A DNA stretch of 64,000 bases from Nitrospiraceae bacterium (lineage in GTDB: Bacteria; Nitrospirota; Nitrospiria; Nitrospirales; Nitrospiraceae): assembly GCA_035457905.1 (NCBI GenBank), contig DATIAT010000032.1:10945-74944 (forward strand), read 5' to 3'. The notes under the pieces were generated by a model. It was not told the origin of the DNA and searched no databases. It worked only from the letters and a program-made list of their open reading frames with translations. The number at the start of each line of letters is the position of its first letter. Positions within the stretch are counted from its first letter, which is position 1. Below are positions 38,016 through 61,952 of this stretch, in pieces. The position numbers and the translations under genes were made by a program.

Positions 38016-38543
38016 TTAGTCCACTACCCCACGCCAACAAAACAATTTGGCCCAGAAGAATCCTGCCCAAGGCACCAACACTGCGGGAAGAGGATCTAGA
38101 TCGCCGCGGACGATGGCCACGGCCGACGCACCAATGATCACGACTCCTCCAGCAATGGAGATTGCGGTGACAAACCCGCGCCCTGGGTGCTCGATTGACG
38201 GCACCTCCGGCTCGGTCTTGACCTTGGCCTTCCTGTTTCTCAAGGCCACGGCGGATCGCAGCTTTGCTGCATACACCTCAGGAAAAGTTTTAAAAAGATA
38301 GCGGTGATAGCGCGCTTGCCCCCACCCACACAACCCACCGAGGACGAGCAAGGCTGAACTGGAAAGAAATGTGAGCCAGCTGTATGTATGGTTCATAACC
38401 AGTTGGTAGCCAAGTGATCCCATTGCACCGACCATGCAGATCAATCCAATTGTTCCGGCCCTGAAGAGAATATGGGACCTTACGTAATAGCGAGCTTGTT
38501 CGTCGATCTTTTCCGGTCGCAAAACCGTCACAAGTTTCGGCAT
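38016..38543 (-). CDS. Hypothetical integral membrane protein (about 4 TM)
   Basis: 175 aa with hydrophobic segments. No motif recognised. Confidence 0.45.
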   Translation of the reverse strand: MPKLVTVLRPEKIDEQARYYVRSHILFRAGTIGLICMVGAMGSLGYQLVMNHTYSWLTFLSSSALLVLGGLCGWGQARYHRYLFKTFPEVYAAKLRSAVALRNRKAKVKTEPEVPSIEHPGRGFVTAISIAGGVVIIGASAVAIVRGDLDPLPAVLVPWAGFFWAKLFCWRGVVD

Positions 38544-39154: not shown

Positions 39155-41314
39155 CTAGCTCGGTAAGATATCACTGATCGCGGACCGTTCAACGCGTCCG
39201 ATATTCCTCCACTGATCCGCCATCGGAATCAATGCATGAATTCTCGTCTCAACCGTTTCCAGCCGCTGAGCCAGCGTCGACGTTTTTCTGTAGGCAGCGA
39301 CCATGAGAAAGGATCGTAGCCCTTGCAAGAACATCGTGATCATCGTCGCTTGCACACGGCTGGCCAAATCGTAGAGAGCTTCGACCTGTTCAAGAATCGG
39401 GTCGAGCTGAGATGTCGTCACCAAATCTGTCGCTCCTTGCATTCGCAGACTGGCTAGCGTGGAACTGATGATCGGGACTCTTCGGCGGACTTCCTGCACG
39501 AAATCTTCATCGAGTCGATCAAGTTCCGTCAAGATCCGTCTGACATCGGCAACTTGAAGATGATCGCCTTCCCGCTCAGCCCGTTGGATCACCGCCTCCA
39601 ATACATCCCGAGCCGGCTGCATCGAGCGAGCACGAGCTTGCTGCAGGTCGCGAAGGGCATGAATCAGCGGGACACCGAAGCTCACGGTGAGCGGGGTCTT
39701 CAGCTTGGGGACATCGGGCAACTCAGTCCCGATGGCAGATGGAGCCTGCACCAATTCGCTCACGGTTTCCATAAGATCGTCATCCGTTCCAGCACATTTG
39801 TCCTCGTGGCTTCCTCCTAAACGACGCACAGCTAGACTGATCCGATCCAATCCCTCTTGAAGCGACCGAAGCGCTGCTGTCATCGCGCGTGGTCCCTGCC
39901 GCCCTACGTCGTGGAGAATCGGAAGCAGATTCGAAGCCATCTGCTCAATAGTCTGGAGCTGCACCGTCGACGCAGACTTGGCAAGATTGCTAATTCCTTG
40001 CAAGAGAATCCCGTAGAGCTTCGGACGCAACGTTCCATTCGGCCCTTCGGCGAGCTGTCGCACCGCCATTTGGATTTGCGCCAGCCATTCGTGTGCTTCG
40101 AGGGCAAATAACCCGATGACTTCTTTTTGAAAACCGGCATCCACAACATCCCGGGCAGGAAACCGACCGACCCATCGATGCTCGTCCGACGCCGACCCCG
40201 TTCCACTCGGTGGCACAGAAGTTCTGGACTCGACCGCGCCCTGAATCGCACTTGCCAGAGCATCTAAACCTTCTAAGAGTGCGGTAAACTGATCGGACGC
40301 CGATGGGACCGCTCCGGATGTCTTGGCATGCGATTCATCCGCTGAAAAAGACACTCGCGCGACATCAGGAGGTTCCAATGTCTCGATGATCGACACGAGC
40401 GGGGTAAGGCTCAGGTCGATCTGCGTTCCACTCTGATCACCGGCCGCATCACCCACGATCCGCACGACCGGACGGAGCGGATAGCGCGTATTGACACGCA
40501 CCACAGACCCGACTTGTCCTGTGGTCAATCGCACCGATGTGCCCAGAGGATAGGCAGACAGCTGTTCGACCAAGGCTTTGACGACCTCCCGGGGGAATGC
40601 CGTCCGTTCCGCCACCATCAATTCTCGTACCGCCTCGTGTGGAAAAAACCTTCGGCGATACCCGCGTGGACTGACGAGAGCATCGAAGACATCCACCACG
40701 CCGATAATTTGGGCAAACTCGCTGATTTGCCGCCCTTTCAGCTTGTTGGGGTACCCCTGTCCGTTCCACCGTTCGTGAGCCTGGCGTACCACTTGCGCCA
40801 ACCAATCGTATTTTGAACCCGCCTTTCGAATCGTTTGATAACCGAGCTCGGGGTGTTGTTCGATCAGCATGCGTTCATCATTGGTCAACCGACCCGACTT
40901 GGTAATCAGTGACTGCGGTACGGCAAAGAGACCGATGTCGTGCAGTAGCCCTGCGCAGGTAAGCCTTTCCAATTCTTCCCCGTGATAGCCTAAGCCGGCT
41001 CCCACCTTCGTCGATAAAATCGCCACATTCACAAGATTCGTAATTAACGGAGAACCTGCGGGACCACTCATAGCCTGAACGAGCAATTGATCGCTCTTCT
41101 TGAGCGTCTGCACGATTCTTGTCGCCATGACAAACAAGGCATCCAAATCGAGGTCGCGCTGCTCCTGGACAGCAAGCGCCACATTCGTCAATTGTTCCTG
41201 CGCAGCACGGTAGCAGTCTGTCGCGTTGTATGCGTTCATGACTTGACGACGCCCTTGCGGAACATTCGAATTCGCATCATATGACTTGCTCGAGCCGTCG
41301 AACAAGCCGAGCAT
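39155..41314 (-). CDS. HD-GYP domain protein fused to a C-terminal ~330-aa Hpt-like helical module (no receiver domain)
   Basis: 719 aa. HD-GYP motifs LLHDIGL, EQHPELG, AHERWNGQGYP, DVFDAL (residues ~60-290). Residues ~390-719 align along their length with the product of 41330-42277. Confidence 0.85.
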   Translation of the reverse strand: MLGLFDGSSKSYDANSNVPQGRRQVMNAYNATDCYRAAQEQLTNVALAVQEQRDLDLDALFVMATRIVQTLKKSDQLLVQAMSGPAGSPLITNLVNVAILSTKVGAGLGYHGEELERLTCAGLLHDIGLFAVPQSLITKSGRLTNDERMLIEQHPELGYQTIRKAGSKYDWLAQVVRQAHERWNGQGYPNKLKGRQISEFAQIIGVVDVFDALVSPRGYRRRFFPHEAVRELMVAERTAFPREVVKALVEQLSAYPLGTSVRLTTGQVGSVVRVNTRYPLRPVVRIVGDAAGDQSGTQIDLSLTPLVSIIETLEPPDVARVSFSADESHAKTSGAVPSASDQFTALLEGLDALASAIQGAVESRTSVPPSGTGSASDEHRWVGRFPARDVVDAGFQKEVIGLFALEAHEWLAQIQMAVRQLAEGPNGTLRPKLYGILLQGISNLAKSASTVQLQTIEQMASNLLPILHDVGRQGPRAMTAALRSLQEGLDRISLAVRRLGGSHEDKCAGTDDDLMETVSELVQAPSAIGTELPDVPKLKTPLTVSFGVPLIHALRDLQQARARSMQPARDVLEAVIQRAEREGDHLQVADVRRILTELDRLDEDFVQEVRRRVPIISSTLASLRMQGATDLVTTSQLDPILEQVEALYDLASRVQATMITMFLQGLRSFLMVAAYRKTSTLAQRLETVETRIHALIPMADQWRNIGRVERSAISDILPS

Positions 41315-41329
41315 CGACCTGTAGATTCT

Positions 41330-42277
41330 CTACGAGTGATTGACGGGGAGCAACTGATCGATTGCGGTGCGTTGGGCCCGTCCATGCTCTGCCCACTGAC
41401 GGATGGCGTCGCCCATCATATGCAGCCGGGCCTTCACCGATTCTATCCGCGCAGCAGCCAGAACCACTCGACGCTTCGTCACCACCGTCAATAGACTGTG
41501 CAGTCCAGTGAAAAACATCATGGCCGAGGCTGCATTCACCTGCTGTGATTCCACGCGCAAACGTGCGACATCTTGAAGCGAATCTTCGAGGGCCCTTATT
41601 CGCGTGGAGACCTCGTTTCCGTCAATCTTGAGCGCACTCAGCTTCTTGGCAATCTCAGGCACCCCCTCATCAATCGCTTTCAAGAACGCTTCTTCCGCTT
41701 CAGACACCCGCGCAAGATATCCGTGAATGACCGCAGGATCGATACGTTCAACACCGGCCTGAACCTGCACTTCCATCTGCTCGATCAGACTGCGGATCAG
41801 ATTGCGCCCGGCCATCACACCGGATTGCTGCTTGCTTTCTAGTTCCTGAAGCGCGCGGATAAACTCTCCTGGAGAGAGACTTGCTGAAACCCGCTCAGAT
41901 GCCTCACTACTCCCGTCTTCTTCGAAGGAAACACCTGTCGCATGAGTCAATGCCTTGTGGATCAATCCCAGCTGTTTACAAAACGAGAGAAAGTCCTGAA
42001 CAGAGGGTGATTTTTGTGGGTCCTGGAGAGGTTGGATGTATGGAATGGCCGCAAAACTGGCCTCTTTAACGTCGGAAAGATTAATCGTAGCAGCAGACCC
42101 GCCGAGGTTCGTCACTCCGGCTGAAATCGTTTCAATCAGCTTCGCGTGCCGCTCAGGCGCCGGTCCCTGCTGCAGTTCATCAAGCGCGACATGAATGTTC
42201 TGGAGCCATTCATGAGCTTCCTGAACAAAGAGATCGACCAATTCTTTCTGGAAATCTTCTGGGATGTCGGCGGCCAT
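41330..42277 (-). CDS. Stand-alone Hpt-like (pseudo-Hpt) helical protein, paralogous to the C-terminus of the HD-GYP protein
   Basis: 315 aa. N-terminus FQKELVDLFVQEAHEWLQNIHVAL resembles the start of CheA P1/Hpt domains. The HxxKG position reads VTNLGGSA, with no His. The C-terminus ...GRAQRTAIDQLLP matches ...GRVERSAISDILP of the neighbouring protein. Confidence 0.7.
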   Translation of the reverse strand: MAADIPEDFQKELVDLFVQEAHEWLQNIHVALDELQQGPAPERHAKLIETISAGVTNLGGSAATINLSDVKEASFAAIPYIQPLQDPQKSPSVQDFLSFCKQLGLIHKALTHATGVSFEEDGSSEASERVSASLSPGEFIRALQELESKQQSGVMAGRNLIRSLIEQMEVQVQAGVERIDPAVIHGYLARVSEAEEAFLKAIDEGVPEIAKKLSALKIDGNEVSTRIRALEDSLQDVARLRVESQQVNAASAMMFFTGLHSLLTVVTKRRVVLAAARIESVKARLHMMGDAIRQWAEHGRAQRTAIDQLLPVNHS

Positions 42278-42327
42278 GAGATCAGTCCTTCACGACAGTG
42301 CCGGTTCACGAGGGAGGTCGGACAGGA

Positions 42328-43461
42328 TCAAGGCCGTCGCTTTCCGCTCCCCAGCTGAGAGGCCAATCCCGCGATTTCGCCAAGTTTCGCTGCCATCTCT
42401 TCAAATCTCTTGGTGGCTTGCTCGGACGCTTGTTCAGTTTCCGATAAGCGCCTTGCCAGAAGACTATTTCGTTCACGTTCTGTCCGAAGCAGGGCTTCAA
42501 ACTCCTGAGCTTTCTGCGAAGTGCGCTCATTTTCTACAAGCTGTGCGGCTAGATCTCTGCTTCTTTCCTTTTCCGCGGCGAGAGCTTGTTCCAATGTGCC
42601 CACCCGTGCGGTAACCTGTTCCATCTCGGTCATTTGTTCAACCAGTTGCGCGGCAGCCTGTCGCTCGGCGTTCAGAGTCATCTCCAACTCCTGGACACGA
42701 CTCGCATTTTTCCGCAGTTCGGCCAACTGCGTCGCCTGTTGCGCACTGTCTTGTTGCTCCTTCCGAAGCGCCGACTCTAATTCCTGCACACGCCTGCTCA
42801 AGCTCTCCGCCAAAGAAGCTTTGTCCTTGAGTGCAGCGGCCCCCTCCCGCTCGCTCGCCAACATCGCTTCCAGTTCCGTGACGCGACCCAATTGTGCTTC
42901 GAGTTGCGCTACGCGCTGAGCACTATGTGCCGCTCGATCCCGTTCGACCGAAAGCTCTTCCTCCAGCGGCTTCAATCGTGCAGTCGCTTGCCGATAGGCT
43001 TCCAGTTGCTCTTCGTTCTCTCGCGAGCCTTGAATCAATCCGGTCGGCTCAATCACTTTCTCGAAACTCTTCGCAGCAGGTGTGGCAGCGTTTTGCCTCT
43101 TGGCCAACAGCTCGATCACCCGATCCTTGAGAGAGGTGCCCTGAAACGGTTTTTTCAATACACCGTCGGCATGACAGGACTCCGCTTGCTTCGTCACTTC
43201 ATCATTCACAATGCCTGAGATCAGCAGCACCGGAGTATTCGCTGTTCCTCTCTGCGCGCGCACGAAGGCACAAACCTCGTAGCCGCTCTTATCCGGCATA
43301 ATCACGTCGGACACAACCAGATCAGGCTTCTCTTTGGCCAGATAGGCCAGAGCCTCCTCGCCGTTCGCAGCAAGCGTGACTCCAAATCCAGCTTCGGTCA
43401 GCAACCGTTCCGCCACCTTCCGTACGGCGATGCTATCGTCCGCTACTAATACTTTCGGCAT
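42328..43461 (-). CDS. Response-regulator receiver fused to a ~250-aa coiled coil
   Basis: ATG at 43461 (MPKVLVADDS). DLVVSDVIMPDKSGYE and LKKPF are present. The rest is heptad-rich with recurring RV-ELE--L--E segments. Confidence 0.85.
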   Translation of the reverse strand: MPKVLVADDSIAVRKVAERLLTEAGFGVTLAANGEEALAYLAKEKPDLVVSDVIMPDKSGYEVCAFVRAQRGTANTPVLLISGIVNDEVTKQAESCHADGVLKKPFQGTSLKDRVIELLAKRQNAATPAAKSFEKVIEPTGLIQGSRENEEQLEAYRQATARLKPLEEELSVERDRAAHSAQRVAQLEAQLGRVTELEAMLASEREGAAALKDKASLAESLSRRVQELESALRKEQQDSAQQATQLAELRKNASRVQELEMTLNAERQAAAQLVEQMTEMEQVTARVGTLEQALAAEKERSRDLAAQLVENERTSQKAQEFEALLRTERERNSLLARRLSETEQASEQATKRFEEMAAKLGEIAGLASQLGSGKRRP

Positions 43462-43499
43462 GGCAAGATTCTCCCCAGTAACGATTGCGACACAACATC

Positions 43500-43946
43500 T
43501 TACGCGTGAGGCTTTCCAAGCTTGGTCAAACACAGAAGGTCGATCGGCTGACCATCAATCGTACACGTGCCCACGATGACGGAATCAGTTCCATCCGAAA
43601 GATGGATCGATGCGCGATCCAGCGACTGCAAGATTGGCATGTCCGAATCAATGCGCACGGCCATTAACCCATCCTCGTGTTTGGCCAGCAGACACAGAGG
43701 AGGGTCACTCTCTATTGTCAGTTGAAGCTGCCCCGCCAAATCAAAAATCGGCAGTACTTCTTTCCCAAGCCACGTAACAGCATTCACAAACGGCGTCTGG
43801 CTTGGCACCGACACAACCGAAGGCCATTGAACGATACCTCTGACCTCTTCCATACCAGTGGCAAACCGTCGTCCCCCAATAGAAAATATCGTGACCCACT
43901 GCTTCGAGAGAACCGGTTTCTTTCGACTTGCTTGGGACTGCAACAT
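43500..43946 (-). CDS. CheW-like coupling protein (divergent)
   Basis: 148 aa. Single CheW-like domain pattern (VTIFSIGGRRFATGMEEVRGIV...LPIFDLAGQL). Confidence 0.7.
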   Translation of the reverse strand: MLQSQASRKKPVLSKQWVTIFSIGGRRFATGMEEVRGIVQWPSVVSVPSQTPFVNAVTWLGKEVLPIFDLAGQLQLTIESDPPLCLLAKHEDGLMAVRIDSDMPILQSLDRASIHLSDGTDSVIVGTCTIDGQPIDLLCLTKLGKPHA

Positions 43947-44012
43947 CAGCGGACTCGCATACTCCTGCGTTGGACTAGACCGGGAATATCGACTTTAAAC
44001 CGCTCTTGTATT

Positions 44013-44540
44013 CTAGAAGCCATGCCCCGCAGCAACCTCAGAGCGCCAGGGCACCACATCGGTCGGCGCCACCAGCCAATCGAGATTGATGATCAAGACA
44101 AGGGCATCTTCGAAGAAGAACAGCCCGTCAAACCATTCGCGTTCAGCCCCGCGGAACTGAGGAGGCAAGGGTACAATGGCCGACCGCTCGACTTCGAGCA
44201 GACTGATTATGCGATCGACCGCATAGGCCTTGCGCCATACTCCGTTGGAACACAAAATCGTCCGCCCCTGGGATGAGAACGGCGTCACCGTTTTGTTTGG
44301 ATTGAGGCGATTGGTCAAATCGCTCTTTTCATATGTCTCGCCCAAAAGCGTAATGGTGTCCTGAAACGTCGCCTCAATCGTTTTCAACAAACCACGGATT
44401 CCTTTCCCCGGAATCGACACCCGCATCGGCGCGCACTCCACGATCAACTGTTGATTCACATTCGTCGGCGCCGCTGAACGGTTTTTACGAACTAGAAGAC
44501 TCATCGGCTCCTTTCCTCCAAGCGGAACCGGCCTGGCCAC
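44013..44540 (-). CDS. CheW-like coupling protein (divergent)
   Basis: 175 aa. CheW-like C-terminal half (YAVDRIISLLEV...LVLIINLDWL). The N-terminal half is less typical. Confidence 0.6.
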   Translation of the reverse strand: MARPVPLGGKEPMSLLVRKNRSAAPTNVNQQLIVECAPMRVSIPGKGIRGLLKTIEATFQDTITLLGETYEKSDLTNRLNPNKTVTPFSSQGRTILCSNGVWRKAYAVDRIISLLEVERSAIVPLPPQFRGAEREWFDGLFFFEDALVLIINLDWLVAPTDVVPWRSEVAAGHGF

Positions 44541-44582
44541 GACGGCACTCGCCTCTATACAACTGCACCGCGCGCCGCTGGA

Positions 44583-47500
44583 TCATGGCTGAACCAGCCC
44601 CTTTTTACCGGCTACCCGCTCGATTTCCTTGAGCAGCGTATGCTCTACAACGGGCTTCGTGATATAGCCGGTCGCACCGACATTGAGCGCAAGTTGCCGA
44701 TGCTTTTCACCCGCGCGCGTCGTCATCACCAAAATCGGCACGGATTGCGTTTGCTGGCGGCTCCTCAATATCTGAATCACTTCATACCCATTCAACTTCG
44801 GCATCTCCAGATCCGTAATGATTAGATTGTAAGCTTGCGTAGACGCTTTGCGGATGCCCTCTTCGCCGTCGCCGGCCGTGGCCACCCGATATCCTGCCGT
44901 CTCCAGCATTCGTCCGATAAATTTACGGATGCTCAATGAGTCGTCGATCAGCAGAATGGACACTGTCTCGGCTGGCTCCGAATCCGATGCCTCCTCGCAG
45001 CCCCCTTCCACGGCACCGACTTCCGGTGTTGCCGAGCTGGCGACCATCGACACGGCCCCGCTCTGACTCGTGAACAGCCTACTCACGTCCAGTACCAAAA
45101 TGACTCGTCCGTCCAGATCGAACGTGGCGCCGGAAAACGGTACCTGCTCCATGAGTTTGAGCGAGCCCAATGATTTGACGACGATTTCCTGCTGGCCCAA
45201 TAATTCGGTGACTGCGAGCCCCATAGGACCGGCATCGGTATGCACAATCACGATGGGCGTCGTGTTTTCAATGGCGGACGAACCGTGGCCGAGCAGGCTG
45301 GATAAGGTCTGGATCTCTACGGCCTCGTCTCCCATCTGCAACAACATCCGGTCTCCCATGTTATGCACAGCGCTCGGCATGGGCAAGGTGATTTCCCGTA
45401 TACTCGCCAACGGAATCGCGTAGTGCATCTCGCCGACACGGACTATCAGCGCCATGGTGATCAGCAAGCTGAGAGGGAGGTGTAAGGAAAACTTTGTACC
45501 AAGCCCCTTCACGGTTTCGATCTCGATGCGGCCGTTCATCGAGCGGATCACGCGCTCTACGACATCCATTCCGATGCCGCGGCCAGCCTGATCGGTTGAC
45601 ACCTCGGCTGTAGAAAAACCCGGCACAAAAATGAAGCGCGTAATTTCCGCGTCGGTCAGCTGTGCCGCCTGATCAGGATTGACCAACCTCTTGGCGATAG
45701 CCGTTGCTTTGATCTTATCGAGATCGAGCCCGCGCCCGTCGTCTTCCACTTCGATCACCACGGCGTTCCCTCGCTGCGCCGCATGCAAGCGGATCGTGCC
45801 TATCGCCGATTTCCCATTAGCCTCCCGGACCTGAGCCGGTTCGATGCCGTGATAGACCGCATTCCGTATCAAATGAATCAGTGGATCGATCAGCCGTTCG
45901 ACCACGCCCGTATCGATTTCCGTGCGTTCGCCGGCCATCGTCAGCTCCACGTCTTTTCCGGTCGCACGTGCGCTTTCCCGCACCGACCGCAAAAACCTTG
46001 TGAACAGCATGCCGATCGACACCATCCTGGTTTTAGTTGTTTGATCCCGTATGCCGGTCGTCAAATCCTGCAGCTGGTTCAACTCGTCCCGTGCAGCCTG
46101 GATCGATGCGTTCAACTGCGAAACCGATTCGCTGATGTCAGCAGCCCCTTCGCCGATCCGCCGAGCCAGGATATTGAAATCGTCGTATTTATCGAACTCC
46201 AACTCGCCGAATTCCGTCACACCGGTCAGAGCCGGCATCGATGCCATGGTCCCTTGAGGCGAAAGGGAAGGCATCGTAAAAGTGTGTTTCTCTTCAAACG
46301 CCTGAATGCCGGTGAGCAAACGGTTCTTGCAAGCTATCACTTGGTGGGTTAACTGATTCAAGGTCTCTAGTCGCCGTTCCAATCGTCCTCGGGTGATGAT
46401 CAGCTCGCCAACGAGATTCAGCAGTTGCTCCAGACGATCCCGTCTGACTCTGATCTGTTGGACATCAGTCGACGCGCCTGTCACATCGGTATCCGGAACG
46501 GGCAATCCCTCCTTCCGTTCAGACTCAGAAGCCGCAGGGAATTCTTGAACCGCTGCGGTCATCGTAGGGGACGCCGGCCGCGGAATGGATCCGGTGACCA
46601 ACGCCTGCCTGAGCGTCGCGAACTCCGCCTGAACCCTCAAAAGTCGGTCTCTCAGTTGAGGCAGTTGCTTGACATCTCGTTGGAGCAAGACACGCACAAC
46701 ATCAATCGTCCGCAGCACGCTGTCCGTAAAGAAAGCGGTAATTTCCAGACGACCATGGCGCACAGCATCGAGATAATCTTCGACCGTATGGACCAAGTCG
46801 CCGATTATTTGAAAGTTGATGGTGTACGCCGATCCTTTAAGTGTATGCACCTTCCCAAACAACTGGTTGATCATCTCTTGGTTTCTGGGATCTTTCTCCA
46901 GCTGGAGAAGAAGGTTTTCGATGCTTTGCAGATACCCCTCGGCTTCCGGAAGAAAATACGAGAGATCGCCGGAATCAAGTTTGGGGATGATATACTCCGC
47001 AGTCAGTTGTGGCGTCGAAGCCGATTCGACAACTGCCGGACTCCCCGAATCGTTCGATGCGACGACGAACTCGACCTGCTCACCCTGCTGAATTCGGCAC
47101 AATGCATCCCTCACGACTGGGATATCCCGTTGAAAGCCGGCCACCTCGTTCAAGTCGCCACGCAGAAGGGACCGGATGATCTCCATCGTACGTTCCACGG
47201 CATTCAACAGCACAGAAGATACCGGAAGCCCGCCGTCGCGAATGGTCACGAGACAATTCTCAAGAGGGTGAGCGAGATCCCCAATGACTTCAAACCCTAC
47301 CGTATAGGCCGATCCCTTGATCGTATGAATGGTCCGAAACAAGGTAAGGATCTGGTCGTTGTCGCCAGGATGCGACCGTAGGTGAGCGACCGCTCCTTTG
47401 ACAGTCTCGAGATATTCCTGAATTTCAGGAACGAAATATGAGAGGACGTCCGCATCGATGGTGGGCATGCAGTATTCCGCCGAAATGGAGATGCCTGTCG

Positions 47501-47936
47501 CAGCGGTCTGCGCCTCGTCCGAGGATGCACCAGAAGGCAAGGCGAACGCCATTAGCGCGGCATAGCGTTGGGTCCATGCGTCCGCAGCCAGGCCTTCGTC
47601 TGCCTCCCCTTTCGCAATACGTTCGATCTGGCGACGGCAGTCTACGACGATTTCCCGAAGCAAGTCGACAGCTTCAGGCCAGCGAGTATGATCAATCTCG
47701 GAGGCGTACTCGAGAACCGTCTCCATCATCTCCCCATATCGAGACAGGCCCATGTATCCGTAATTCAGCGCAGTGCCCTTAAGCTTGTGCGCAAGGATAT
47801 AGTGCTCTTGGAGCGATTCGCAGGACGGAAACGACATATCTGGAGGATTGAGTGCGGTCCACAGCGTTGCCATGTCTTCCAACGTCTCGGCGGTAAAGAT
47901 CTCCACCAGCTCCCTGTTTATTGGTTTCTCACTCAT
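44583..47936 (-). CDS. ChpA-like hybrid CheA kinase: 3 Hpt domains, dimerisation, HATPase, CheW-like and C-terminal REC
   Basis: 1117 aa. Hpt His contexts AHKLKGTA (H50), IHTIKGSA (H204), VHTLKGSA (H364). Kinase boxes HLIRNAVYHGIE, DDGRGLD, GRGIGMDVV, GLGTKF. P5 domain. REC has ILLIDDS...ITDLEMPKLNGYE...ITKP. Confidence 0.93.
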   Translation of the reverse strand: MSEKPINRELVEIFTAETLEDMATLWTALNPPDMSFPSCESLQEHYILAHKLKGTALNYGYMGLSRYGEMMETVLEYASEIDHTRWPEAVDLLREIVVDCRRQIERIAKGEADEGLAADAWTQRYAALMAFALPSGASSDEAQTAATGISISAEYCMPTIDADVLSYFVPEIQEYLETVKGAVAHLRSHPGDNDQILTLFRTIHTIKGSAYTVGFEVIGDLAHPLENCLVTIRDGGLPVSSVLLNAVERTMEIIRSLLRGDLNEVAGFQRDIPVVRDALCRIQQGEQVEFVVASNDSGSPAVVESASTPQLTAEYIIPKLDSGDLSYFLPEAEGYLQSIENLLLQLEKDPRNQEMINQLFGKVHTLKGSAYTINFQIIGDLVHTVEDYLDAVRHGRLEITAFFTDSVLRTIDVVRVLLQRDVKQLPQLRDRLLRVQAEFATLRQALVTGSIPRPASPTMTAAVQEFPAASESERKEGLPVPDTDVTGASTDVQQIRVRRDRLEQLLNLVGELIITRGRLERRLETLNQLTHQVIACKNRLLTGIQAFEEKHTFTMPSLSPQGTMASMPALTGVTEFGELEFDKYDDFNILARRIGEGAADISESVSQLNASIQAARDELNQLQDLTTGIRDQTTKTRMVSIGMLFTRFLRSVRESARATGKDVELTMAGERTEIDTGVVERLIDPLIHLIRNAVYHGIEPAQVREANGKSAIGTIRLHAAQRGNAVVIEVEDDGRGLDLDKIKATAIAKRLVNPDQAAQLTDAEITRFIFVPGFSTAEVSTDQAGRGIGMDVVERVIRSMNGRIEIETVKGLGTKFSLHLPLSLLITMALIVRVGEMHYAIPLASIREITLPMPSAVHNMGDRMLLQMGDEAVEIQTLSSLLGHGSSAIENTTPIVIVHTDAGPMGLAVTELLGQQEIVVKSLGSLKLMEQVPFSGATFDLDGRVILVLDVSRLFTSQSGAVSMVASSATPEVGAVEGGCEEASDSEPAETVSILLIDDSLSIRKFIGRMLETAGYRVATAGDGEEGIRKASTQAYNLIITDLEMPKLNGYEVIQILRSRQQTQSVPILVMTTRAGEKHRQLALNVGATGYITKPVVEHTLLKEIERVAGKKGLVQP

Positions 47937-47986
47937 GCGTGAGCCCCCTCAAGGGCAATCTCCATCCCACACTGCCATCTCACTCC

Positions 47987-49858
47987 TCAGACCAGCTTGA
48001 ACTGCGCAACCGAGGCCGTCAGACTGTCGGCGAGTTTGGTCATGTCCTCGACCGTCAACCGCGCGGCATCTGTAGCTTTCTGTGTTTCCACGGTGCCACC
48101 CGTGAATTCCTTAATCGAGCACCTCACTTGATCTGCCGACACCGTCTGGTTCGCCGCAGAAGCCGCGATGGTTTCGGCCAACTCGGCCGAACGTTTGGCG
48201 ATTCCCGAAATCTCCTCGAAGACGTCACCGGTCAGCATAGCGGACTTGGACCCGACCTCCACTGCCTTGGTTTCGTTCTCCATCTCAACGACAGCTTCCT
48301 GCGTCTCGCTCTGAATGACTTTGACCAGATCGGCAATTTCGCGCGTCGCTTGCGAGGAACTTTCGGCCAGTTTCCGGACTTGTTCGGCCACAACCGCAAA
48401 TCGCGCACCGGCCTCGCCTGCACCGGCAGCTTCGATCGCCGCGTTCAACGCCAGAAGATTCGTCCGGTTCGCAATCTCTCTGATAGCCGACACAATCTGC
48501 GAAATTTCCACGGATCGATCACCGAGCGCCTTGACCTGCTTCGACATCCGCTGCACGGCGGTCCGAATGCTCTGCATGTCCTCCACGGTTTTCTGCACGG
48601 CCTCACGGCCTCGAGCTGTCGCTTCAAGCACCAGTTTGGCGCTGTCCGACGAAGCGCCGGCAGTCTCCGCCACCTGACGCATTGAGCGCGCCAGGTTTTC
48701 GACAGCTTCAAGTGTCTTCTTCGATTCGTCGGCTTGATGCTTTGCCGTACCGGACATCTGCCTCGTGTTGTCGCGCAACACACCGGAGGATTTATTGACA
48801 CGCTCGGCAGCCTCCCGCACCTGCTTCAACAATTGCCCGAACCGACTGATCATCAGGTTGAATCCGTCGGCCAAGTTGCCGAACATATCTGCTGTTACCT
48901 CACCGCGTTTGGTCAAGTCGCCTTTACCAATATCAGAGACTAAGACCAGGAAACTCATCAACCGCTTTTGCATATCATCGCGCTCGGATTCAGACGTCAC
49001 AAGGGCCGTCATGCGGTCCATCATCGCATTGAACGATGCGGCCATCTGTCCGATTTCATCATTCGATGTGACCTTCGCGCGGGCTTGGTAATGGCCGTCC
49101 GCCGCCGACTTCACGGCGTTTGCGACTTGCCCAATACCCAGCGCCACCTTGTGCGCCGCCCAGTATCCGAGTGCCAAACACACCAGTGCGGCAAAGATGC
49201 CGACGACGATCAACATACGCGTTCCGTCGTCGGCCAGGGCCTGAGCATGTTCATTCAAGTCCTTAGCGACCTCACGCATGTCCAAAACTTGTTCGTGGTG
49301 GCGAGCGACCATCAAATCGAAGGTCGGCTGTATGTTCACCGTGAGGGCCAATTTTCCCAGGTCTCTCATGTGTTCAGCTTGCTCTGCAGAAAGCGACTTT
49401 CCAAAGCTATCGGCCATGACACTGAGGGCTCCCTCTGCATCCTTAAAATATTTATCGATGGCCGACTTTAGAATCGCCAAGTCCTTCTTACCATCTCGGC
49501 CGGACCGCGACACTTGTGGCGCCGTGGCCGCGTAGGAGGCTATAATGCTTTTGACCTTCCCCTGATACGGTGACAGCCGAGCGACATTCACCACATAGTC
49601 GGCATGGCTCGTGACGCCGGCGATACCAGTTAAAATTTGATGATGCGTCGTAAGCGCTGTACCCATTTCAGCGAATTCGGCAAGGGGCAACGTATTACCG
49701 GCATACATCGCCTGAGACGAGGTGGCAGACTGTCGGACCGTCCAGACACCGATCGCCGACATGGTCATAATAATGACACTGATCACTCCGAACGTCGCCA
49801 AAAATTTTGACTTAATTGTTATGCCTTCAGGCCGCTGCGCGACATTGAACTTAGCCAT
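47987..49858 (-). CDS. Transmembrane methyl-accepting chemotaxis protein (2 TM, HAMP, MA domain)
   Basis: 623 aa. Signalling tip [35 protein letters not shown]. Confidence 0.92.
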
Positions 49859-49937
49859 GGGAATCTCCTCCTTTATACAGGTGCCTCGAACTCACGTATG
49901 GTGGTCTGTCTCACCTAATTGGTTGCGGCGCTCGCGA

Positions 49938-50441
49938 TCATTTATTCGTTCCACCGATGTATGACAACAACGCCGGGACTTCGATGACACTGCCCATACG
50001 GCCGGCCAGTTTCAATATGCTCGTCACGAATGGGTGGGCCCCTTCCGGCGACTGCACCGCAGCTGTCACATATTCGTCGGGCAGTAGGTCACGGAGTTCC
50101 GGAACCTTGTCGACCAACACTCCGATTTGCTGGACGCCTTGTTGAATCACAACGGCATATCTTGCGGAAGTCTTCCAGACTGGCAGCCCCAAGGCGGGAC
50201 GCAAATCGGCAATCGGCATGACGACGCCTCTCAAGTTGGCAACACCACATAGCATCGCTGGTGCCCCGGGCACCGGCGTAATAGTCGTAACTTCGAACAC
50301 TTCCCGCACATAACGAAGGTCGATGACGAACGACTGGCCAGCGAGACTCAGCAGGCAGACGCGCATAGGCCGCGTCGCAGCCTTCGCTGACTCGGCCCGC
50401 TCCGCCGTCACATGATGGACGATTCCTTCAGTCTGAGTCAT
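49938..50441 (-). CDS. cheW: CheW coupling protein
   Basis: 167 aa. CLLSLAGQSFVIDLRYVREV...NLRGVVMPIADLR. Confidence 0.88.
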   Translation of the reverse strand: MTQTEGIVHHVTAERAESAKAATRPMRVCLLSLAGQSFVIDLRYVREVFEVTTITPVPGAPAMLCGVANLRGVVMPIADLRPALGLPVWKTSARYAVVIQQGVQQIGVLVDKVPELRDLLPDEYVTAAVQSPEGAHPFVTSILKLAGRMGSVIEVPALLSYIGGTNK

Positions 50442-50471
50442 TCGGTTCGATCACTTTCCACACGATCACCG

Positions 50472-50840
50472 TTACCGCAACGCAGCTTTGATGGCGTCCA
50501 GTAATGCTTCGGCCCTGACTGGCTTCACTAGATAGCTGGCGGCTCCCTGTTGTTGCCCCCAGAACTTGTCACTCTCCTGACCTTTCGAGGTACAGAGAAT
50601 GACGGGGACATGCTTGTAACGATCATCGTTTTTCAAGTCACGACAGGCCTGGAACCCGTCGCGCCCTGGCATCACTACGTCCATCACGACCACGTCCGGT
50701 TTTTCCTTGGCGAGTTTGGCTTCAAGGTTCATCGCATCTGAAAACGACACAACCGTATGGTGCGCCGACCTCAGATACTCCTCAATCAACTTCAGATCGG
50801 CTTGACTATCATCGACCACGACAATCTTGCTCATCATCAT
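50472..50840 (-). CDS. Single-domain response regulator (CheY/PilH-like)
   Basis: Start at the MMMSKIVVVDDS cluster (about 50840; the track ORF extends to 50939). DVVVMDVVMPGRDGF and YLVKP are present. Confidence 0.88.
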   Translation of the reverse strand: MMMSKIVVVDDSQADLKLIEEYLRSAHHTVVSFSDAMNLEAKLAKEKPDVVVMDVVMPGRDGFQACRDLKNDDRYKHVPVILCTSKGQESDKFWGQQQGAASYLVKPVRAEALLDAIKAALR

Positions 50841-51700
50841 CCTCTCGTCATTGAATTGAATGAACCCCTCTCCGTTCGAAGTCCGAGACAAGCTTTCAAC
50901 GTAGTGCTGATGGCGCCAGCCAACTCCCCTTCTTTCCACCCTTCCACGCGCATCGAGGTAATATCGCGTTTTCCCTCAGGGCTGCCATGGCACGATAGAC
51001 AGGATGCCGTAGCATATTCCGGCTGTATCAGAATCGAGTGCCGGCTTCCCGGCTACCAACGTGTTCCTGCCATAGGATTGACCCTTGGGATGTCTAGAGT
51101 CAGCGAACATTCGTAAGTTTTCCGCCTCAAAATCGGCCGGTTTGTTGCCTGAAAATCGGTAGTCGGTTCCCATCAGTTTCAGTTTGATGCCAGGCCGATT
51201 GATCCCTGCTTAATAGGACGCCACCACTTCCTTCTGGGTTTCCAGCTAGCTCCTGAGCAGGGCACCTTGCAAAGTATCGTCGGGCCGACTCAAGTCTATG
51301 TGCTCCAAATTCCTGAATGGGGTCGTGAGGGTCTCGCCCACAAGGATTGGAGTAGATCCTTTATCGCCTTTCGCCGGATCGTTGATTTCGGCTTGATATT
51401 CGGACACCAGTGAATGACTGAGCTTGCGCAGCGACGAGATGGAGTGCTGTTTTGATTTCATTCGCGGCAGCCGTATCGTGAGACACAACCAACCCTGGGA
51501 CAAGACACGTCGTCGCGCAGAGCACTGCGATAATCACTGTTCTGACGCTCATACCGATGTCCTTCTTGGGCACACGTTTCCGCTGACTGCTCAACGATCC
51601 GTCCAAAATGCCAAAGTTCACGCGCACATATCCAGAAGTGTACTGTATTCCGTACTGACTGCAAGGAAATCGGAAAAAGAAACGCACTATGCCGTGTGGG

Positions 51701-52783
51701 TCACAGAGCTCTCCGGCCACCGTCGCGCAATTGACGCATGAGCGCGTCGGGAATATCTCTAAGTGGCAGCACCAGGTCGACGGCCCCTGCCTGAATCGCT
51801 TCTTTCGGCATGCCGAACACGACGCAAGTCGATTCGTTCTGCGCGATCGTATAAGCGCCGGATCGCTTCATCTGGAGCAGCCCAGCCGCCCCGTCGTTAC
51901 CCATCCCGGTCAAAATGATGCCGATGCTGTTCACGCCCGCATGCTTAGCGACCGAGGCAAAGGTCACATCGACAGACGGACGGTGCCGGTTGACCGGCGT
52001 ATCCTGATTGAGGTGGACCAGATAGCGGGCGCCGCTCCGCATGAGGGTCATGTGGTAATTGCCCGGCGCGATCAGCGCATGACCGGGCAGAACACTGTCG
52101 CCGTCTTCGGCTTCTTTCACGGAAATCCGGCACAGGCTGTTCATCCGTTCTGCCCAGGTCTTCGTAAACCGCGCCGGCATGTGTTGAGTAATGAGAATCG
52201 GAGGGCTATGCGGCGGCAGCACTTCCAGCACCTCTTTCACGGCCTCGGTTCCGCCAGTGGAAGACCCGATGGCCACGATGGTATCGGTCGTCTTGATCAT
52301 CCCGGATGCCTCATGCAGCGCGCGACGAGCGACGCTGCACGCAAGTTTTTGGGTTGCCGCGGACACCTTCCCCCGAACCCGAGCGACGGCAGCCGCCTTG
52401 ACTTTTTCGATGAGCTCCTCCGCGAGTTCCTCCATCCCGCGACGGATGTCGACTTTCGGTTTCGTCACGAAATCCACGGCGCCCAGCTCCAACGCTCGGA
52501 GAGCCGTCTCGCAGCCTCGCTCCGTCAACGAACTGACCATCAATACCGGCATGGGCGTGGTCGCCATGAGTTTCTCCAGAAATTTCAGCCCGTCCATGTG
52601 AGGCATTTCCACGTCCAGCGTAAGGACGTCCGGGTGCAACGCCTCGATTTTCGTCCAAGCGCCCGTCGGGTCATGAGCGACGCCAACGACTTCGATATTC
52701 CAATCCTGCGACAATAGATGCGACAAAAACTGCCGGATCAAGGCCGAGTCGTCGACAATTAGCACTCGAATTTTCTTTGTCAT
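51701..52783 (-). CDS. cheB: Chemotaxis response regulator protein-glutamate methylesterase
   Basis: ATG at 52783 (MTKKIRVLIVDDS). REC domain plus a methylesterase domain with IGSSTGGTEA and ...GMGNDGAAGL. Confidence 0.93.
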   Translation of the reverse strand: MTKKIRVLIVDDSALIRQFLSHLLSQDWNIEVVGVAHDPTGAWTKIEALHPDVLTLDVEMPHMDGLKFLEKLMATTPMPVLMVSSLTERGCETALRALELGAVDFVTKPKVDIRRGMEELAEELIEKVKAAAVARVRGKVSAATQKLACSVARRALHEASGMIKTTDTIVAIGSSTGGTEAVKEVLEVLPPHSPPILITQHMPARFTKTWAERMNSLCRISVKEAEDGDSVLPGHALIAPGNYHMTLMRSGARYLVHLNQDTPVNRHRPSVDVTFASVAKHAGVNSIGIILTGMGNDGAAGLLQMKRSGAYTIAQNESTCVVFGMPKEAIQAGAVDLVLPLRDIPDALMRQLRDGGRRAL

Positions 52784-52840
52784 ATCTCCCCGTGCTGGCA
52801 CGTGTGACAGGCTGAAGGGCAGGCCAACGGCAGCCTTCGA

Positions 52841-53488
52841 TCAGAACAACGTGGCATCGCTTTTCGGTGTGTACGGACCATATAAGGCCGTGAACACCTT
52901 CTCTGCCTCGACAGCGCGCACGCGCTCCGCAGAATCGCCCGCCTTCATTAGCACCCGTCCAGTATCCGTATAGTAATAAACACTCCGGGCATAATCCTTC
53001 CCGAGATCGGACGCGACTGGCTGTAGTCCTTCCCGTCCCAGATATTCCAATACCCACTGCACGTTGATGGCGCCGATATCGCCACCCCCCTCATAGAGTT
53101 TTGCGCCACCGAATACTTTGACCTCCAACCGGTTCCTGTGCCCTCCATGCTTGAGTATCCCGTTGATCAGCATTTCCATCGCGTAACTGCCATATCGGGT
53201 TTTCACGTTCCACGCGCTGGAAGAAGCTGAACTGCCAGGTGCCGGTAACATGAAATGATTCACGCCTCCCACACCGGCATACGGATCACGCATGCAGACC
53301 CCCACACATGACCCGAGCAACGTCGAGATGACCACCGGCTTGTGTGAGACGAAGTATTCTCCCGCGAAGAGCGTCACCACCTCGTGATCCGGGAAACGAT
53401 GATGGCGTCGGCGTCGATTCGATGGGCCTTCCATCTGCGGGACGTTGTGATCCTCGAAAGGTTCATTACTCACGGTCCATGCTCGCAC
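52841..53488 (-). CDS. cheD: Chemoreceptor glutamine deamidase CheD
   Basis: VVISTLLGSCVGVCMRDP...GGVNHFMLP, with the catalytic Cys context typical of CheD. GTG at 53488; alternative ATG at 53434. Confidence 0.88.
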   Translation of the reverse strand: MRAWTVSNEPFEDHNVPQMEGPSNRRRRHHRFPDHEVVTLFAGEYFVSHKPVVISTLLGSCVGVCMRDPYAGVGGVNHFMLPAPGSSASSSAWNVKTRYGSYAMEMLINGILKHGGHRNRLEVKVFGGAKLYEGGGDIGAINVQWVLEYLGREGLQPVASDLGKDYARSVYYYTDTGRVLMKAGDSAERVRAVEAEKVFTALYGPYTPKSDATLF

Positions 53489-53520
53489 ACGTTTTCTTCG
53501 GTTCCATGATGCCGTAGCCG

Positions 53521-54345
53521 TTACTCCTGTTTCTGATAAATCGTCGGCGCGATATAATGGAATTCGCCGGAGATCCCCTGCAAGGTCTCCGAGTGACCCA
53601 TAAACAGGTACCCGCCCGGCTTGAGGTATCGAGATAGCCGCGCCAACACTGCTGCCTGAGTCTTACGATCGAAATAGATCATCACATTTCGGCAGAAAAT
53701 CACGTCCAGAGACGACTTGATCGGATACCGGTCATCCATCAGATTGATCCGCCGGAAGACGGCCATTTTGGCAATGTGCGGCTTAATCTTGACGACTTCT
53801 GTGTGGTCACCCTTCCCCAGGAGGAAATGCCGGCGGACGAGATCGGTCGGCAGCGAATTAATCCTCTCAATGGAGTATTGACCGGTCGCGGCCTTGGCCA
53901 GCATGCGGGTCGAGATATCGGACGCCAGGATGCGGCAGTTCCATGTCGAGGGGGAAACGATCGCGTCGGAAAGCGTCATCGCAATGGAATAGGGTTCTTC
54001 GCCGGAGGAGCAGGCTGTGGACCAGATGCGAACCGTTTTTTCCACTGCCAGCTCTGGCAACACCCGCTCTCGAAGAAACGTGAAGTGGTGCGGCTCACGG
54101 AAGAATTCCGTCTGATTCGTCGAAATGTAATCCACCATGGTGATGACCTCGTCACTTTGCCCTCCGACGACAAGGTCATAATAATCCTGAAACGACTTCA
54201 GTCCGAGTTGAGTCAGTCGTTTTTGCAGACGAGAGCTAAACAACGCTCGCTTGTGATCTGTCAAGTTGATTCCGCACTCCCGGTATATGAGCGCGCGAAA
54301 TCGCTCAAACACATCATTATTGAGGAGATATTGCTGTTCCATCAT
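53521..54345 (-). CDS. cheR: Chemotaxis protein methyltransferase CheR
   Basis: 274 aa. N-terminal helical domain, TNQTEFFREPHHF, and SAM fold RIWSTACSSGEEPYS. Confidence 0.93.
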   Translation of the reverse strand: MMEQQYLLNNDVFERFRALIYRECGINLTDHKRALFSSRLQKRLTQLGLKSFQDYYDLVVGGQSDEVITMVDYISTNQTEFFREPHHFTFLRERVLPELAVEKTVRIWSTACSSGEEPYSIAMTLSDAIVSPSTWNCRILASDISTRMLAKAATGQYSIERINSLPTDLVRRHFLLGKGDHTEVVKIKPHIAKMAVFRRINLMDDRYPIKSSLDVIFCRNVMIYFDRKTQAAVLARLSRYLKPGGYLFMGHSETLQGISGEFHYIAPTIYQKQE

Positions 54346-54584
54346 GGTTTGGTCATATTCAGGTTCAAGCCAGCGTGATCTTCCACGCGCAGCCGCAGAC
54401 TATCCCCCTGACCATCATGGACGCATGTAGTGATCGTGGGCAGGAAGCGCCAGGTATGTCACAACCTGCGGGAATCAGTCTATGGAATCCCTGCGAGGCC
54501 CCTCGCGTTTATTTTCGGCTATCGCAATGCTGTTCCACATTCCGTTTCATAATCAGCGGCAACGCATGGTGTCATTCACTATTT

Positions 54585-55610: not shown

Positions 55611-55934
55611 TCTTTATTCTCCTTCGCCGAATATCCTCAGCTTGCTGGGGGACCTCCATAGAACGGAGGGACTCCTCACCCGCTCGCAATAGCTCGTCCG
55701 CCCTGAACCCTGTCGCCATCATCGAATCCGAATTGACGCTGAAGTCCCTATCCACCATGAGGCCCGAAATCGGACATGCTCGAGTGCAGGAGCACAAAAG
55801 CCGCATCTGGACATAGCGCGCGTCTGCCAATGGTCGATGCGGTCGAAGTAGATGCGTACGGGGAGCGAACGCCTTGCAGCACCGTTGGATCAATTGAAAC
55901 CACATAAGGCCGTTCAATACGACGTACCGTTGTC

Positions 55935-58715: not shown

Positions 58716-58792
58716 AGCATTGCCCCTTCCTTTAATTTCTTGTCGTGGCCTTGCCGCTTGTGCCCAACCCTCTCATCACTCTGAAACTTCTC

Positions 58793-59296: not shown

Positions 59297-59341
59297 AGCG
59301 TCCTCCTCCTGGCGTTCCGGTTTGTCCGGACGATCTTGCAT

Positions 59342-59377
59342 AACCAAACAAACGAGACAAACCTAAGCAACCAGCGA
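59342..59377. repeat. Half copy (right-arm type) of the 9-nt periodic repeat in the cheA-cheW spacer
   Basis: aaccaaaca/aacgagaca/aacctaagc/aaccagcga, an exact 9-nt phase with AAC at each unit start. Confidence 0.65.
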
Positions 59378-59380
59378 TAT

Positions 59381-61911: not shown

Positions 61912-61952
61912 ATCATCCCTCCCCCACGTGTCGGCTCCGTCCGAATCTCCAT

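Follow-up and report, generated by a model that had tools for sequence, protein, structure and literature searches.

A chemosensory operon of Nitrospira-like bacteria with histidine-less Hpt modules and a putatively degenerate HD-GYP domain

The stretch of DNA analysed here (the window) is 64 kb of the Nitrospiraceae contig DATIAT010000032.1. It contains a nine-gene chemosensory operon that encodes two related modules resembling the histidine phosphotransfer (Hpt) domain but carrying threonine or serine in place of the phospho-histidine. One of these pseudo-Hpt modules is a stand-alone protein of 315 amino acids (aa), and the other forms the C-terminal part of an HD-GYP-family protein. The reading that we favour, and that is put forward tentatively, is that the modules dock on the receivers of a ChpA-type phosphorelay and so tether a cyclic di-GMP (c-di-GMP)-binding HD-GYP protein to the pathway. 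The type of pathway, in which a pseudo-Hpt adaptor links chemosensing to a cyclic-nucleotide partner, is already known; what is new is the fusion of a pseudo-Hpt module to an HD-GYP protein, a module family restricted to Nitrospirota and an HD-GYP domain that appears partly degenerate.

Nitrospira are the main nitrite oxidisers of wastewater plants, drinking-water filters and soils, where they live largely in flocs and biofilms, and to our knowledge almost nothing is known of how their attachment and motility are controlled. A clade-wide chemosensory pathway that ends in a protein of the c-di-GMP family is a concrete candidate for such control. The occurrence of the module in free and fused copies also provides a natural ‘Rosetta-stone’ case for the role of Hpt domains without histidine, a question that is open for the Ser/Thr domains of ChpA and partly answered for FimL. 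In addition, the locus offers a route by which an HD-GYP protein could be coupled to a phosphorelay without a receiver domain, and an HD-GYP domain that seems to stand between enzymes and receptors. As the operon is present in the cultured N. moscoviensis, the proteins are amenable to in vitro work.

The operon and its chemosensory components

Domains of the nine products were assigned with Pfam. From its first gene to its last the operon contains the following features, where REC denotes a receiver domain:

50472-50840, minus strand: CheY-like single-domain receiver (REC1) in the PilH/PilG position (Pfam Response_reg, E 2e-25)
49938-50441, minus strand: CheW coupling protein (Pfam CheW, E 1e-26)
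47987-49858, minus strand: transmembrane chemoreceptor with a periplasmic four-helix-bundle (4HB) domain, HAMP and a methyl-accepting chemotaxis protein (MCP) signalling domain (Pfam 4HB_MCP_1, HAMP, MCPsignal)
44583-47936, minus strand: ChpA-like hybrid CheA of 1117 aa with three Hpt domains, dimerisation, HATPase and CheW domains and a C-terminal REC (Pfam)
44013-44540, minus strand: divergent CheW-like protein, start codon uncertain (Pfam CheW, E 4e-4, below the cut-off)
43500-43946, minus strand: second extra CheW-like protein (Pfam CheW, E 6e-11)
42328-43461, minus strand: REC-cc, a canonical receiver followed by a coiled coil of about 240 aa (Pfam Response_reg, E 9e-23)
41330-42277, minus strand: stand-alone pseudo-Hpt protein of 315 aa (sub-threshold Pfam Hpt; family profile against CheA P1)
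39155-41314, minus strand: HD-GYP-family protein of 719 aa (probable start 41239) with a C-terminal pseudo-Hpt module (Pfam HD_5/HD)
40550-41059, minus strand: HD-GYP domain of this protein, with a putatively reduced metal site (alignment to 4MCW, 4R8Z and 5Z7C)
39161-40132, minus strand: C-terminal pseudo-Hpt module of this protein, a paralog of the 315-aa protein (BLASTP E 6e-30)

The original prediction, made from the DNA alone, had described nine co-oriented genes in this order with gaps of 15-79 nt, and the coordinates of the open reading frames (ORFs) and the Pfam assignments bear this out: nine intact ORFs lie on the minus strand at 39155-50840, where they had been predicted. With corrected starts, among them that of the REC-cc gene at 43461, the successive gaps are 30, 79, 50, 42, 66, 38, 50 and 15 nt. 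The HD-GYP gene probably starts at Met26 (41239), since the orthologs are 694 aa long as against the 719-aa ORF, and the last junction then becomes 90 nt instead of 15. None of the nine products matched a specific NCBIfam family. A scan for promoters and terminators returned sites no commoner than in shuffled sequence, none of them in the junctions, and is uninformative on operon structure.

The kinase and all three receivers (REC1, REC-cc and that of the ChpA-like protein) look functional from their residues. REC1 carries the acidic pair DD together with D54, T84 and K106, and its acceptor aspartate is invariant among 55 orthologs. The receiver of REC-cc has Vibrio CheY as its best natural match in the PDB, and its acceptor aspartate is found in each of the 79 orthologs aligned at this position (three gaps). 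The three Hpt domains of the CheA have intact histidines (H50, H204 and H364) in HxLKG motifs, and the protein is without a P2 domain. In the chemoreceptor the 4HB domain is flanked by two hydrophobic segments, read directly from the sequence. The divergent CheW-like protein at 44013-44540 keeps its position in all loci, and its orthologs score as CheW (PF01584).

REC-cc is a candidate scaffold or output protein. Its coiled coil is repetitive in sequence, with no tandem DNA repeat underlying it. A receiver followed by a long coiled coil is also found in FrzS and AglZ, the outputs of the Frz pathway of Myxococcus xanthus, which lie downstream of a CheA-REC kinase; the receiver of FrzS is a pseudo-receiver, whereas that of REC-cc has all the phospho-acceptor residues and is most like CheY.

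Judged by its architecture, the kinase would belong to the type IV pili (Tfp) or alternative cellular functions (ACF) class. Multi-Hpt CheA proteins that lack P2 and end in a REC are typical of these two classes, which hold about 93% of the multi-Hpt CheAs (PMC10782961). The CheA features of the Tfp class, that is, several Hpt domains, no P2 and a C-terminal receiver, are all present. The ACF and F1 rows of Table S2 of the same study list an F1 CheA for N. moscoviensis and contain no 1116-aa ACF entry; this hints that the ortholog belongs to a class outside these rows, which is consistent with the Tfp class but no proof of it.

The order of a CheY-like protein, CheW, MCP, a multi-Hpt CheA with C-terminal REC and an extra CheW is that of the Pil-Chp system of P. 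aeruginosa. In contrast to Pil-Chp, the operon has no PilK or ChpB, and the scanned ORFs of the 64-kb window include no pil genes, nor were any seen within the 10-kb flanks of the relatives. The original prediction had noted the absence of CheR and CheB, and this holds for the nine genes; it does not hold for the surroundings, where CheR, CheD and CheB are encoded directly upstream (see below).

The Wsp system consists of a CheA-REC hybrid, two CheW-like proteins, CheR, CheB and the REC-GGDEF regulator WspR, which serves c-di-GMP synthesis. The operon resembles it in combining an array that has a CheA-REC kinase and two CheW-like proteins with a putative output concerning c-di-GMP. It differs in that the c-di-GMP protein is of HD-GYP type with a seemingly reduced site and, as had been predicted and as Pfam confirms, has no REC, and in that the conserved unit is without CheR and CheB. 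Pfam found no GGDEF domain in the nine operon products.

A pattern built from a 14-sequence alignment was scanned against 185,579 species genomes and gave 167 loci; results on loci refer to the best 80 of these, and more distant members of the family were reached by protein look-ups. All 80 are Nitrospira-like, N. moscoviensis included, and the order REC, CheW, MCP, CheA, CheW, CheW, REC-cc, pseudo-Hpt, HD-GYP is identical in every locus that is sufficiently long. Such recurrence among the related loci of sufficient length puts the arrangement far beyond chance. Distant Nitrospirales whose 315-aa protein is about 35% identical keep the operon order, and the linkage of the che, REC-cc and pseudo-Hpt genes is kept across Nitrospirales down to about 25-35% identity of this protein. 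The linkage of the last genes to a ChpA-like kinase, which the original prediction had suggested looking for in other genomes, was thus found conserved for the che, REC-cc and pseudo-Hpt genes, and this conservation argues for a functional tie of the last three genes to the kinase.

Among 1.84e9 proteins the 315-aa pseudo-Hpt family has 163 representatives (at 50% identity), and its named homologs are all assigned to Nitrospira, Nitrospiraceae, Nitrospirales or Nitrospirota. One locus labelled ‘uncultured Cytophagia bacterium’ (CAYNDW010000217.1) was rejected as a member from outside Nitrospirota; it has Nitrospira synteny, its proteins are 65-83% identical to those of the window, and it is probably mis-binned.

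The pseudo-Hpt modules and the HD-GYP domain

Residues 395-718 of the HD-GYP protein can be aligned with the complete 315-aa protein (28% identity, BLASTP E 6e-30), so that the predicted duplication of one module in the gene directly upstream is borne out over its full length. The stand-alone protein reaches 20.7 bits against Pfam Hpt (PF01627; cut-off 24.6), and other members of the family score above the threshold (48 bits for P0122 and 36 bits for P0143). The family profile matches the P1 domain of T. maritima CheA (2LD6/1TQG, E 2e-7), with the phospho-histidine replaced by threonine and the neighbouring lysine by glycine. In the 315-aa protein these positions are occupied by Thr56 and by a glycine in the place of the catalytic lysine. 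The fused module has serine at the histidine position in the window genome and threonine in most orthologs. Within the window, the closest relative of the pseudo-Hpt is Hpt3 of the adjacent CheA (HTLKGSAYTINF vs TNLGGSAATINL).

Across 426 family members the histidine position is occupied by threonine in 355, serine in 32, alanine in 13 and methionine in 12; a hydroxyl residue is found in about 91% and alanine, methionine, valine or another residue in about 9%. No stand-alone member has histidine there, and the matches of at least 600 aa include a single, unassigned one with histidine, presumed to be of CheA type. The lysine that assists phosphotransfer is lost too, with glycine or alanine in its place. 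Since the phospho-histidine position is threonine or serine throughout the family, the modules, to judge from these residues, cannot perform histidine phosphotransfer; they had originally been called Hpt-like and are better described as pseudo-Hpt. The invariant and near-invariant columns of the family cluster at the former active site, where the surface surrounding the lost histidine (T-N-L-G-G-S-A-A-T-V) is conserved most strongly of all.

The AlphaFold2 (AF2) model of the 315-aa protein consists of two helical bundles (pLDDT 81). In Foldseek only the N-terminal bundle is recognised as a P1/Hpt domain, with a TM-score of 0.75 to 1TQG. The matches of the whole model, to generic helical bundles and GPCR-BRIL fusions, were set aside, and only the P1/Hpt matches of the N-terminal domain were taken as meaningful. 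The second bundle (residues 135-315) matches the first weakly (hhalign probability 61-67%, E 5e-5), and the protein may therefore be a tandem of two Hpt-derived bundles. The module occurs free or fused to an HD-GYP domain or to another Hpt-like domain, and in no other combination. The family hidden Markov model (HMM) matches the C-terminal region of the long HD-GYP orthologs of four loci (L001, L058, L081 and L083; E 1e-82 to 1e-114); it finds no match in the short HD-GYP proteins of one lineage, in which the module is present only in trans.

Hpt folds without the phospho-histidine have precedents. The Arabidopsis protein AHP6 is a pseudo-phosphotransfer protein of this kind that competes in a His-Asp relay; it differs in being eukaryotic, single-domain and not fused to an enzyme. 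The closest functional parallel is FimL, which has two Hpt-like domains with glutamine in place of the phospho-histidine and links Pil-Chp to the adenylate cyclase CyaB (PMC3019171). As in that case, a histidine-less Hpt-like accessory protein would connect a chemosensory pathway to a cyclic-nucleotide protein. The Nitrospira module, however, has threonine or serine rather than glutamine and is also fused to the nucleotide-signalling protein, and its partner is of the HD-GYP family and not an adenylate cyclase. The likeness to FimL is one of domain description, and no FimL chain was among the PDB matches of the profile and model searches of the pseudo-Hpt. The coupling device had been predicted to be different from known ones and undescribed. 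For the architecture this stands, as our literature searches found no paper that describes it, and the term ‘Hpt’ is absent from the main text of a census of HD-GYP domain architectures; for the principle it does not, given the precedent of FimL.

The HD-GYP domain was compared with PmGH (4MCW). It retains H125, D126, H154, H180, D208, D211 and the GYP motif (G187, Y188 and P189), which correspond to H221, D222, H250, H277, D305, D308 and GYP of PmGH. The equivalents of D183, E185, H189, K225 and H276 are Gly, Pro, Asn, Leu and Ala, respectively. Among 77 orthologs the HD dyad and the GYP motif are invariant, and the HHE motif is represented by AHE (A179): the H276 equivalent is alanine in 76 and valine in the remaining one. 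The K225 equivalent (Leu129) is leucine in 73 and isoleucine in four. There is no acidic counterpart of D183 or E185, and P89, at the position of E185, is proline in 58 of the 77. No histidine stands at the H189 position, and the other replaced positions vary little or not at all. The c-di-GMP-binding residues K139, Y188, R217, Y219 and R220 are invariant in the same set, and G141 is glycine in 71; apart from Y188, the tyrosine of GYP, these positions belong to the binding motifs KPG, kept as KxG, and RxY[K/R] that the census preprint gives together with the domain signature HHExh(D/N)GxGYP. The full-length AF2 model of the protein was unusable (mean pLDDT 47) and was kept out of the fold search.

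PmGH is inactive when any one of H189, H276, K225 and D183 is changed to alanine, and E185A leaves it with strongly reduced activity (PMC4159591). Since catalytic residues are replaced while nucleotide-binding residues are kept, robust c-di-GMP hydrolysis by the domain is doubtful, whereas c-di-GMP binding is likely, as is the binding of some metal. The route to c-di-GMP hydrolysis proposed in the original prediction becomes doubtful for the same reason, as the equivalents of five PmGH catalytic residues are replaced and four of these abolish PmGH activity when changed to alanine.

DvhD, HnoD and ECA3548 are described examples of HD-GYP-like domains whose metal ligands are substituted and which bind c-di-GMP without cleaving it or act through protein contacts; in DvhD, HD became SQ and HH became MN. 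The window domain shares the fold and the substitution of ligands with these proteins and with the N-terminal domain of V-cGAP3. These receptors have lost the HD dyad and/or both histidines of HHE, whereas the window protein keeps HD, one histidine and three further ligands. On this comparison of residues, the domain is best regarded as partly degenerate and intermediate between enzymes and receptors. The signature variant ‘WNGQG’ is common to the window protein and the first HD-GYP-like domain of V-cGAP3 (PDB 5Z7C, residues 165-244). That domain of V-cGAP3 is non-catalytic.

A docking model and its alternatives

Hpt bundles dock onto receiver domains. Since that is what Hpt domains exist to do, the pseudo-Hpt modules would act as non-phosphorylatable adaptors that dock on a receiver, be it the REC of REC-cc, REC1 or the REC of the ChpA-like kinase, probably in a phosphorylation-dependent manner. 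In this way the HD-GYP protein would be held physically at the phosphorelay. Its HD-GYP domain would have the main role of sensing c-di-GMP by binding it, or would be a slow ‘trigger’ phosphodiesterase, and would not be a bulk hydrolase; a single complex, probably assembled on the coiled-coil scaffold, could integrate the chemosensory state with the local c-di-GMP state. The stand-alone protein may compete for or buffer the same docking site, or pair with the fused module. A physical link between pseudo-Hpt and HD-GYP protein is suggested by the occurrence of the module free, fused and, in one lineage, only in trans.

The last part of the operon is its most variable. It had been predicted to end in the HD-GYP protein, and it does so in the window and in many relatives; three distant relatives (L084, L085 and L086), by contrast, have an operon that ends at the pseudo-Hpt gene. 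The CheA is shorter in these loci (951-967 aa); one of them, L086, is from the complete genome of Ca. Nitrospira bockiana (OZ224215.1, 1696402-1717400). In one Nitrospira lineage (L059, L062-L068 and L074-L080) the HD-GYP protein is short (339-380 aa) and lacks the pseudo-Hpt module. In 37 of 75 loci the pseudo-Hpt and HD-GYP genes are separated by an AAA_22 ATPase gene, for example at L081:11090-11884, L083:2977-3804 and L062:10989-11867 and also in N. moscoviensis. This gene is cleanly absent from the window; its best NCBIfam match, below the cut-off, is the XrtA/PEP-CTERM-associated ATPase TIGR03015. Because the HD-GYP gene is absent in three distant relatives, module-less in one lineage and preceded by an AAA_22 insertion in about half of the loci, it is an accessory part of the conserved unit.

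Two further observations concern the AAA_22 gene. Relatives without the HD-GYP gene have an AAA_22-like gene beside a TPR protein farther downstream (L086:19540-20355). The locus of Nitrospira sp. RSF1 (L062, 7436-12880) is without the che genes and holds only a coiled-coil fragment lacking REC, the pseudo-Hpt gene, AAA_22 and the short HD-GYP gene; this remnant directly follows a gene for an OLD-family (AAA_15 + TOPRIM) nuclease.

Several points weigh against the docking model. The binding of pseudo-Hpt modules to a REC is argued by analogy from what Hpt folds do, and information may flow either from the array to the HD-GYP protein or from c-di-GMP to the array. The assignment of the second bundle as Hpt-derived is weak. 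The three distant relatives without an HD-GYP gene imply a primary role of the pseudo-Hpt protein that does not depend on HD-GYP. In the HD-GYP domain, five metal ligands (H125, D126, H154, H180 and D208) are invariant in the orthologs, which argues for the continued binding of at least one metal and leaves room for real phosphodiesterase activity. Lastly, the HD-GYP census preprint cites robust hydrolysis by the RpfG of Lysobacter enzymogenes, a close homolog of Xanthomonas RpfG, which is itself without equivalents of E185 and H189 (PMC4159591).

The invariant ligands lead to the strongest competitor of the docking model, in which the HD-GYP protein is an active c-di-GMP phosphodiesterase that the array switches via the Hpt-like module, with hydrolysis as the output and a logic like that of Wsp but of opposite sign. 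We consider this unlikely, though it deserves serious attention. The invariance of HD, GYP, H154, H180, D208, D211 and the binding residues would be unexpected for a pure receptor and contrasts with DvhD, the linkage to the che genes is conserved, and the H189 equivalent may be dispensable in RpfG-type proteins (PMC4159591; HD-GYP census preprint). The RpfC/RpfG pair also resembles the present system in placing an HD-GYP-family domain under a His-Asp phosphorelay, and equivalents of E185 and H189 are absent in both. The window protein differs in having a pseudo-Hpt module in place of the REC and in having no equivalents of H276 and K225 either; both residues are kept by RpfG-type enzymes and by every active enzyme whose structure has been characterised. 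Every active HD-GYP enzyme matched in the PDB retains the second histidine and the lysine, in line with the HH of the defined signature. The near-uniform Ala and Leu at these positions, together with the missing acidic counterpart of D183, fall on three residues whose replacement by alanine each leaves PmGH inactive (PMC4159591), and this tells against an active enzyme.

Slightly less probable is a scheme in which the pseudo-Hpt proteins are decoys that compete with the Hpt domains of the ChpA-like kinase for receivers and damp or redirect phosphate; c-di-GMP binding would control the decoy, and the HD-GYP protein would thus be an input and not an output. Hpt3 of the neighbouring kinase is the best match of the module, in which just the histidine and lysine are replaced, as in a competitive mimic; the stand-alone pseudo-Hpt gene is retained where HD-GYP is absent, and a reduced catalytic site with intact binding residues suits a sensor. 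HnoD, an inactive HD-GYP protein that regulates through protein-protein interaction, provides a precedent. A simple decoy would, however, have no need of the large, conserved second bundle (135-315), which suggests a further partner, and the scheme overlaps with the docking model, from which it differs mainly in the direction of signalling.

It is highly improbable that the threonine or serine at the former histidine is itself a phospho-acceptor (‘Tpt/Spt’), modified by the ChpA-like kinase, a receiver or a Ser/Thr kinase in a new relay step that controls the HD-GYP protein. The prevalence of hydroxyl residues at this site, and the presence of Ser- and Thr-containing Hpt-like domains in ChpA of P. 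aeruginosa, would fit such a step. These domains of ChpA are, however, unphosphorylated in vitro (PMC10782961), and in the Nitrospira family the assisting lysine is lost as well. Because roughly 9% of members have alanine, methionine, valine or another residue at this site, a main model built on obligatory phosphorylation of the threonine was discarded.

Equally remote is the proposal that the last three genes are mere syntenic neighbours of the che genes without functional coupling: the flanking genes (175-aa membrane protein, LpxD, ACP, KAS and LptF/G) are also syntenic in all loci, so that conserved order alone is weaker evidence in this clade, but the module is derived from a CheA Hpt domain, its family is found only in this gene context, and gaps of 38-50 nt separate the REC-cc and pseudo-Hpt genes from each other and from the preceding CheW genes on the same strand, with no terminator-like site in the junctions.

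The haem-Cache pseudogene and the surroundings of the operon

Upstream of the operon the following features lie on the same strand:

50897-51434, minus strand: pseudogene of a secreted Tll0287-like/sCache_haem (CxxCH) protein (tblastn of the N. moscoviensis ortholog, L058:519-1289)
51701-52801, minus strand: CheB, directly upstream of the operon
52841-53488, minus strand: CheD, upstream of the operon
53521-54345, minus strand: CheR, upstream of the operon

The 860 nt between cheB and the REC1 gene are no empty gap and contain the haem-Cache pseudogene. Its lesions, as seen by tblastn against the window, are two in-frame stops, a 24-aa deletion, a frameshift before CxxCH and the loss of the N-terminus. 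In 36 of 52 loci the REC gene is directly preceded by an intact ortholog, and those of L081, L085 and L086 match PF11845. On this sequence comparison the haem-Cache gene is taken to be the ancestral first gene of the operon, decayed in the window genome. A stretch of about 285 nt that is conserved among relatives 5' of REC1 was considered as a riboswitch or leader and rejected, as codon periodicity and the CxxCH motif point to a decayed protein gene; Rfam gave no match anywhere in the window. In those of the L059-L080 loci in which REC1 can be placed, no haem-Cache ORF lies upstream of it.

Members of the Tll0287-like family are haem-containing Cache domains; stand-alone members appear to be redox-active and fused members sense nitric oxide (NO) (PMC12889525). 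It is plausible that the periplasmic haem-Cache protein of the relatives is a redox or NO input partner of the 4HB chemoreceptor. A more far-reaching idea, which is speculative and as a whole rather unlikely, is that the Thr/Ser pseudo-Hpt two-bundle module is an unrecognised ‘receiver-reader’ domain that binds phosphorylated REC; at a coiled-coil scaffold it would allow direct mutual regulation between the chemosensory phosphorelay and c-di-GMP signalling, with no receiver on the c-di-GMP protein. Together with the haem-Cache protein of the relatives it would form a redox/NO-to-c-di-GMP/biofilm circuit specific to nitrite-oxidising Nitrospira.

The CheB, CheD and CheR genes belong to a second, complete che cluster at 51701-62285, on the same strand and directly upstream of the operon. 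It comprises a CheY-like ORF, a one-Hpt CheA, CheW, a dCache-PAS-HAMP MCP, MCP fragments, CheR, CheD and CheB; the CheY-like ORF was read from its translation and an ORF of 110 aa was taken as STAS-like, both being outside the domain scan. The first gene of the operon is closely preceded by cobalamin genes in L081 and L086, and the cobalamin adenosyltransferase gene of the window is about 11.7 kb farther from the operon than in these loci. As L081 and L086 have cobalamin genes at this position, the second cluster seems to have entered the window lineage as an insertion of some 11.7 kb, outside the conserved unit, and the insertion may have truncated the haem-Cache gene.

Within the second cluster, at 54585-55917 on the minus strand, a 341-aa ORF has part of an MCP signalling domain followed, on its C-terminal side, by part of a dCache domain and is accompanied by an overlapping ORF of 153 aa; the two look like chimeric or fragmentary chemoreceptor remnants. 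On the other side of the operon, 611 nt downstream and co-oriented with it, a gene at 38016-38543 (minus strand) encodes a predicted membrane protein of 175 aa without a family match. All relatives have it in this position, even where the HD-GYP gene is absent. At 62563-63234 on the plus strand, adjoining the second che cluster, lies the gene for a protein with two PilZ domains, and a dCache-GAF-GGDEF diguanylate cyclase is encoded elsewhere in the window at 17975-20173, also on the plus strand.

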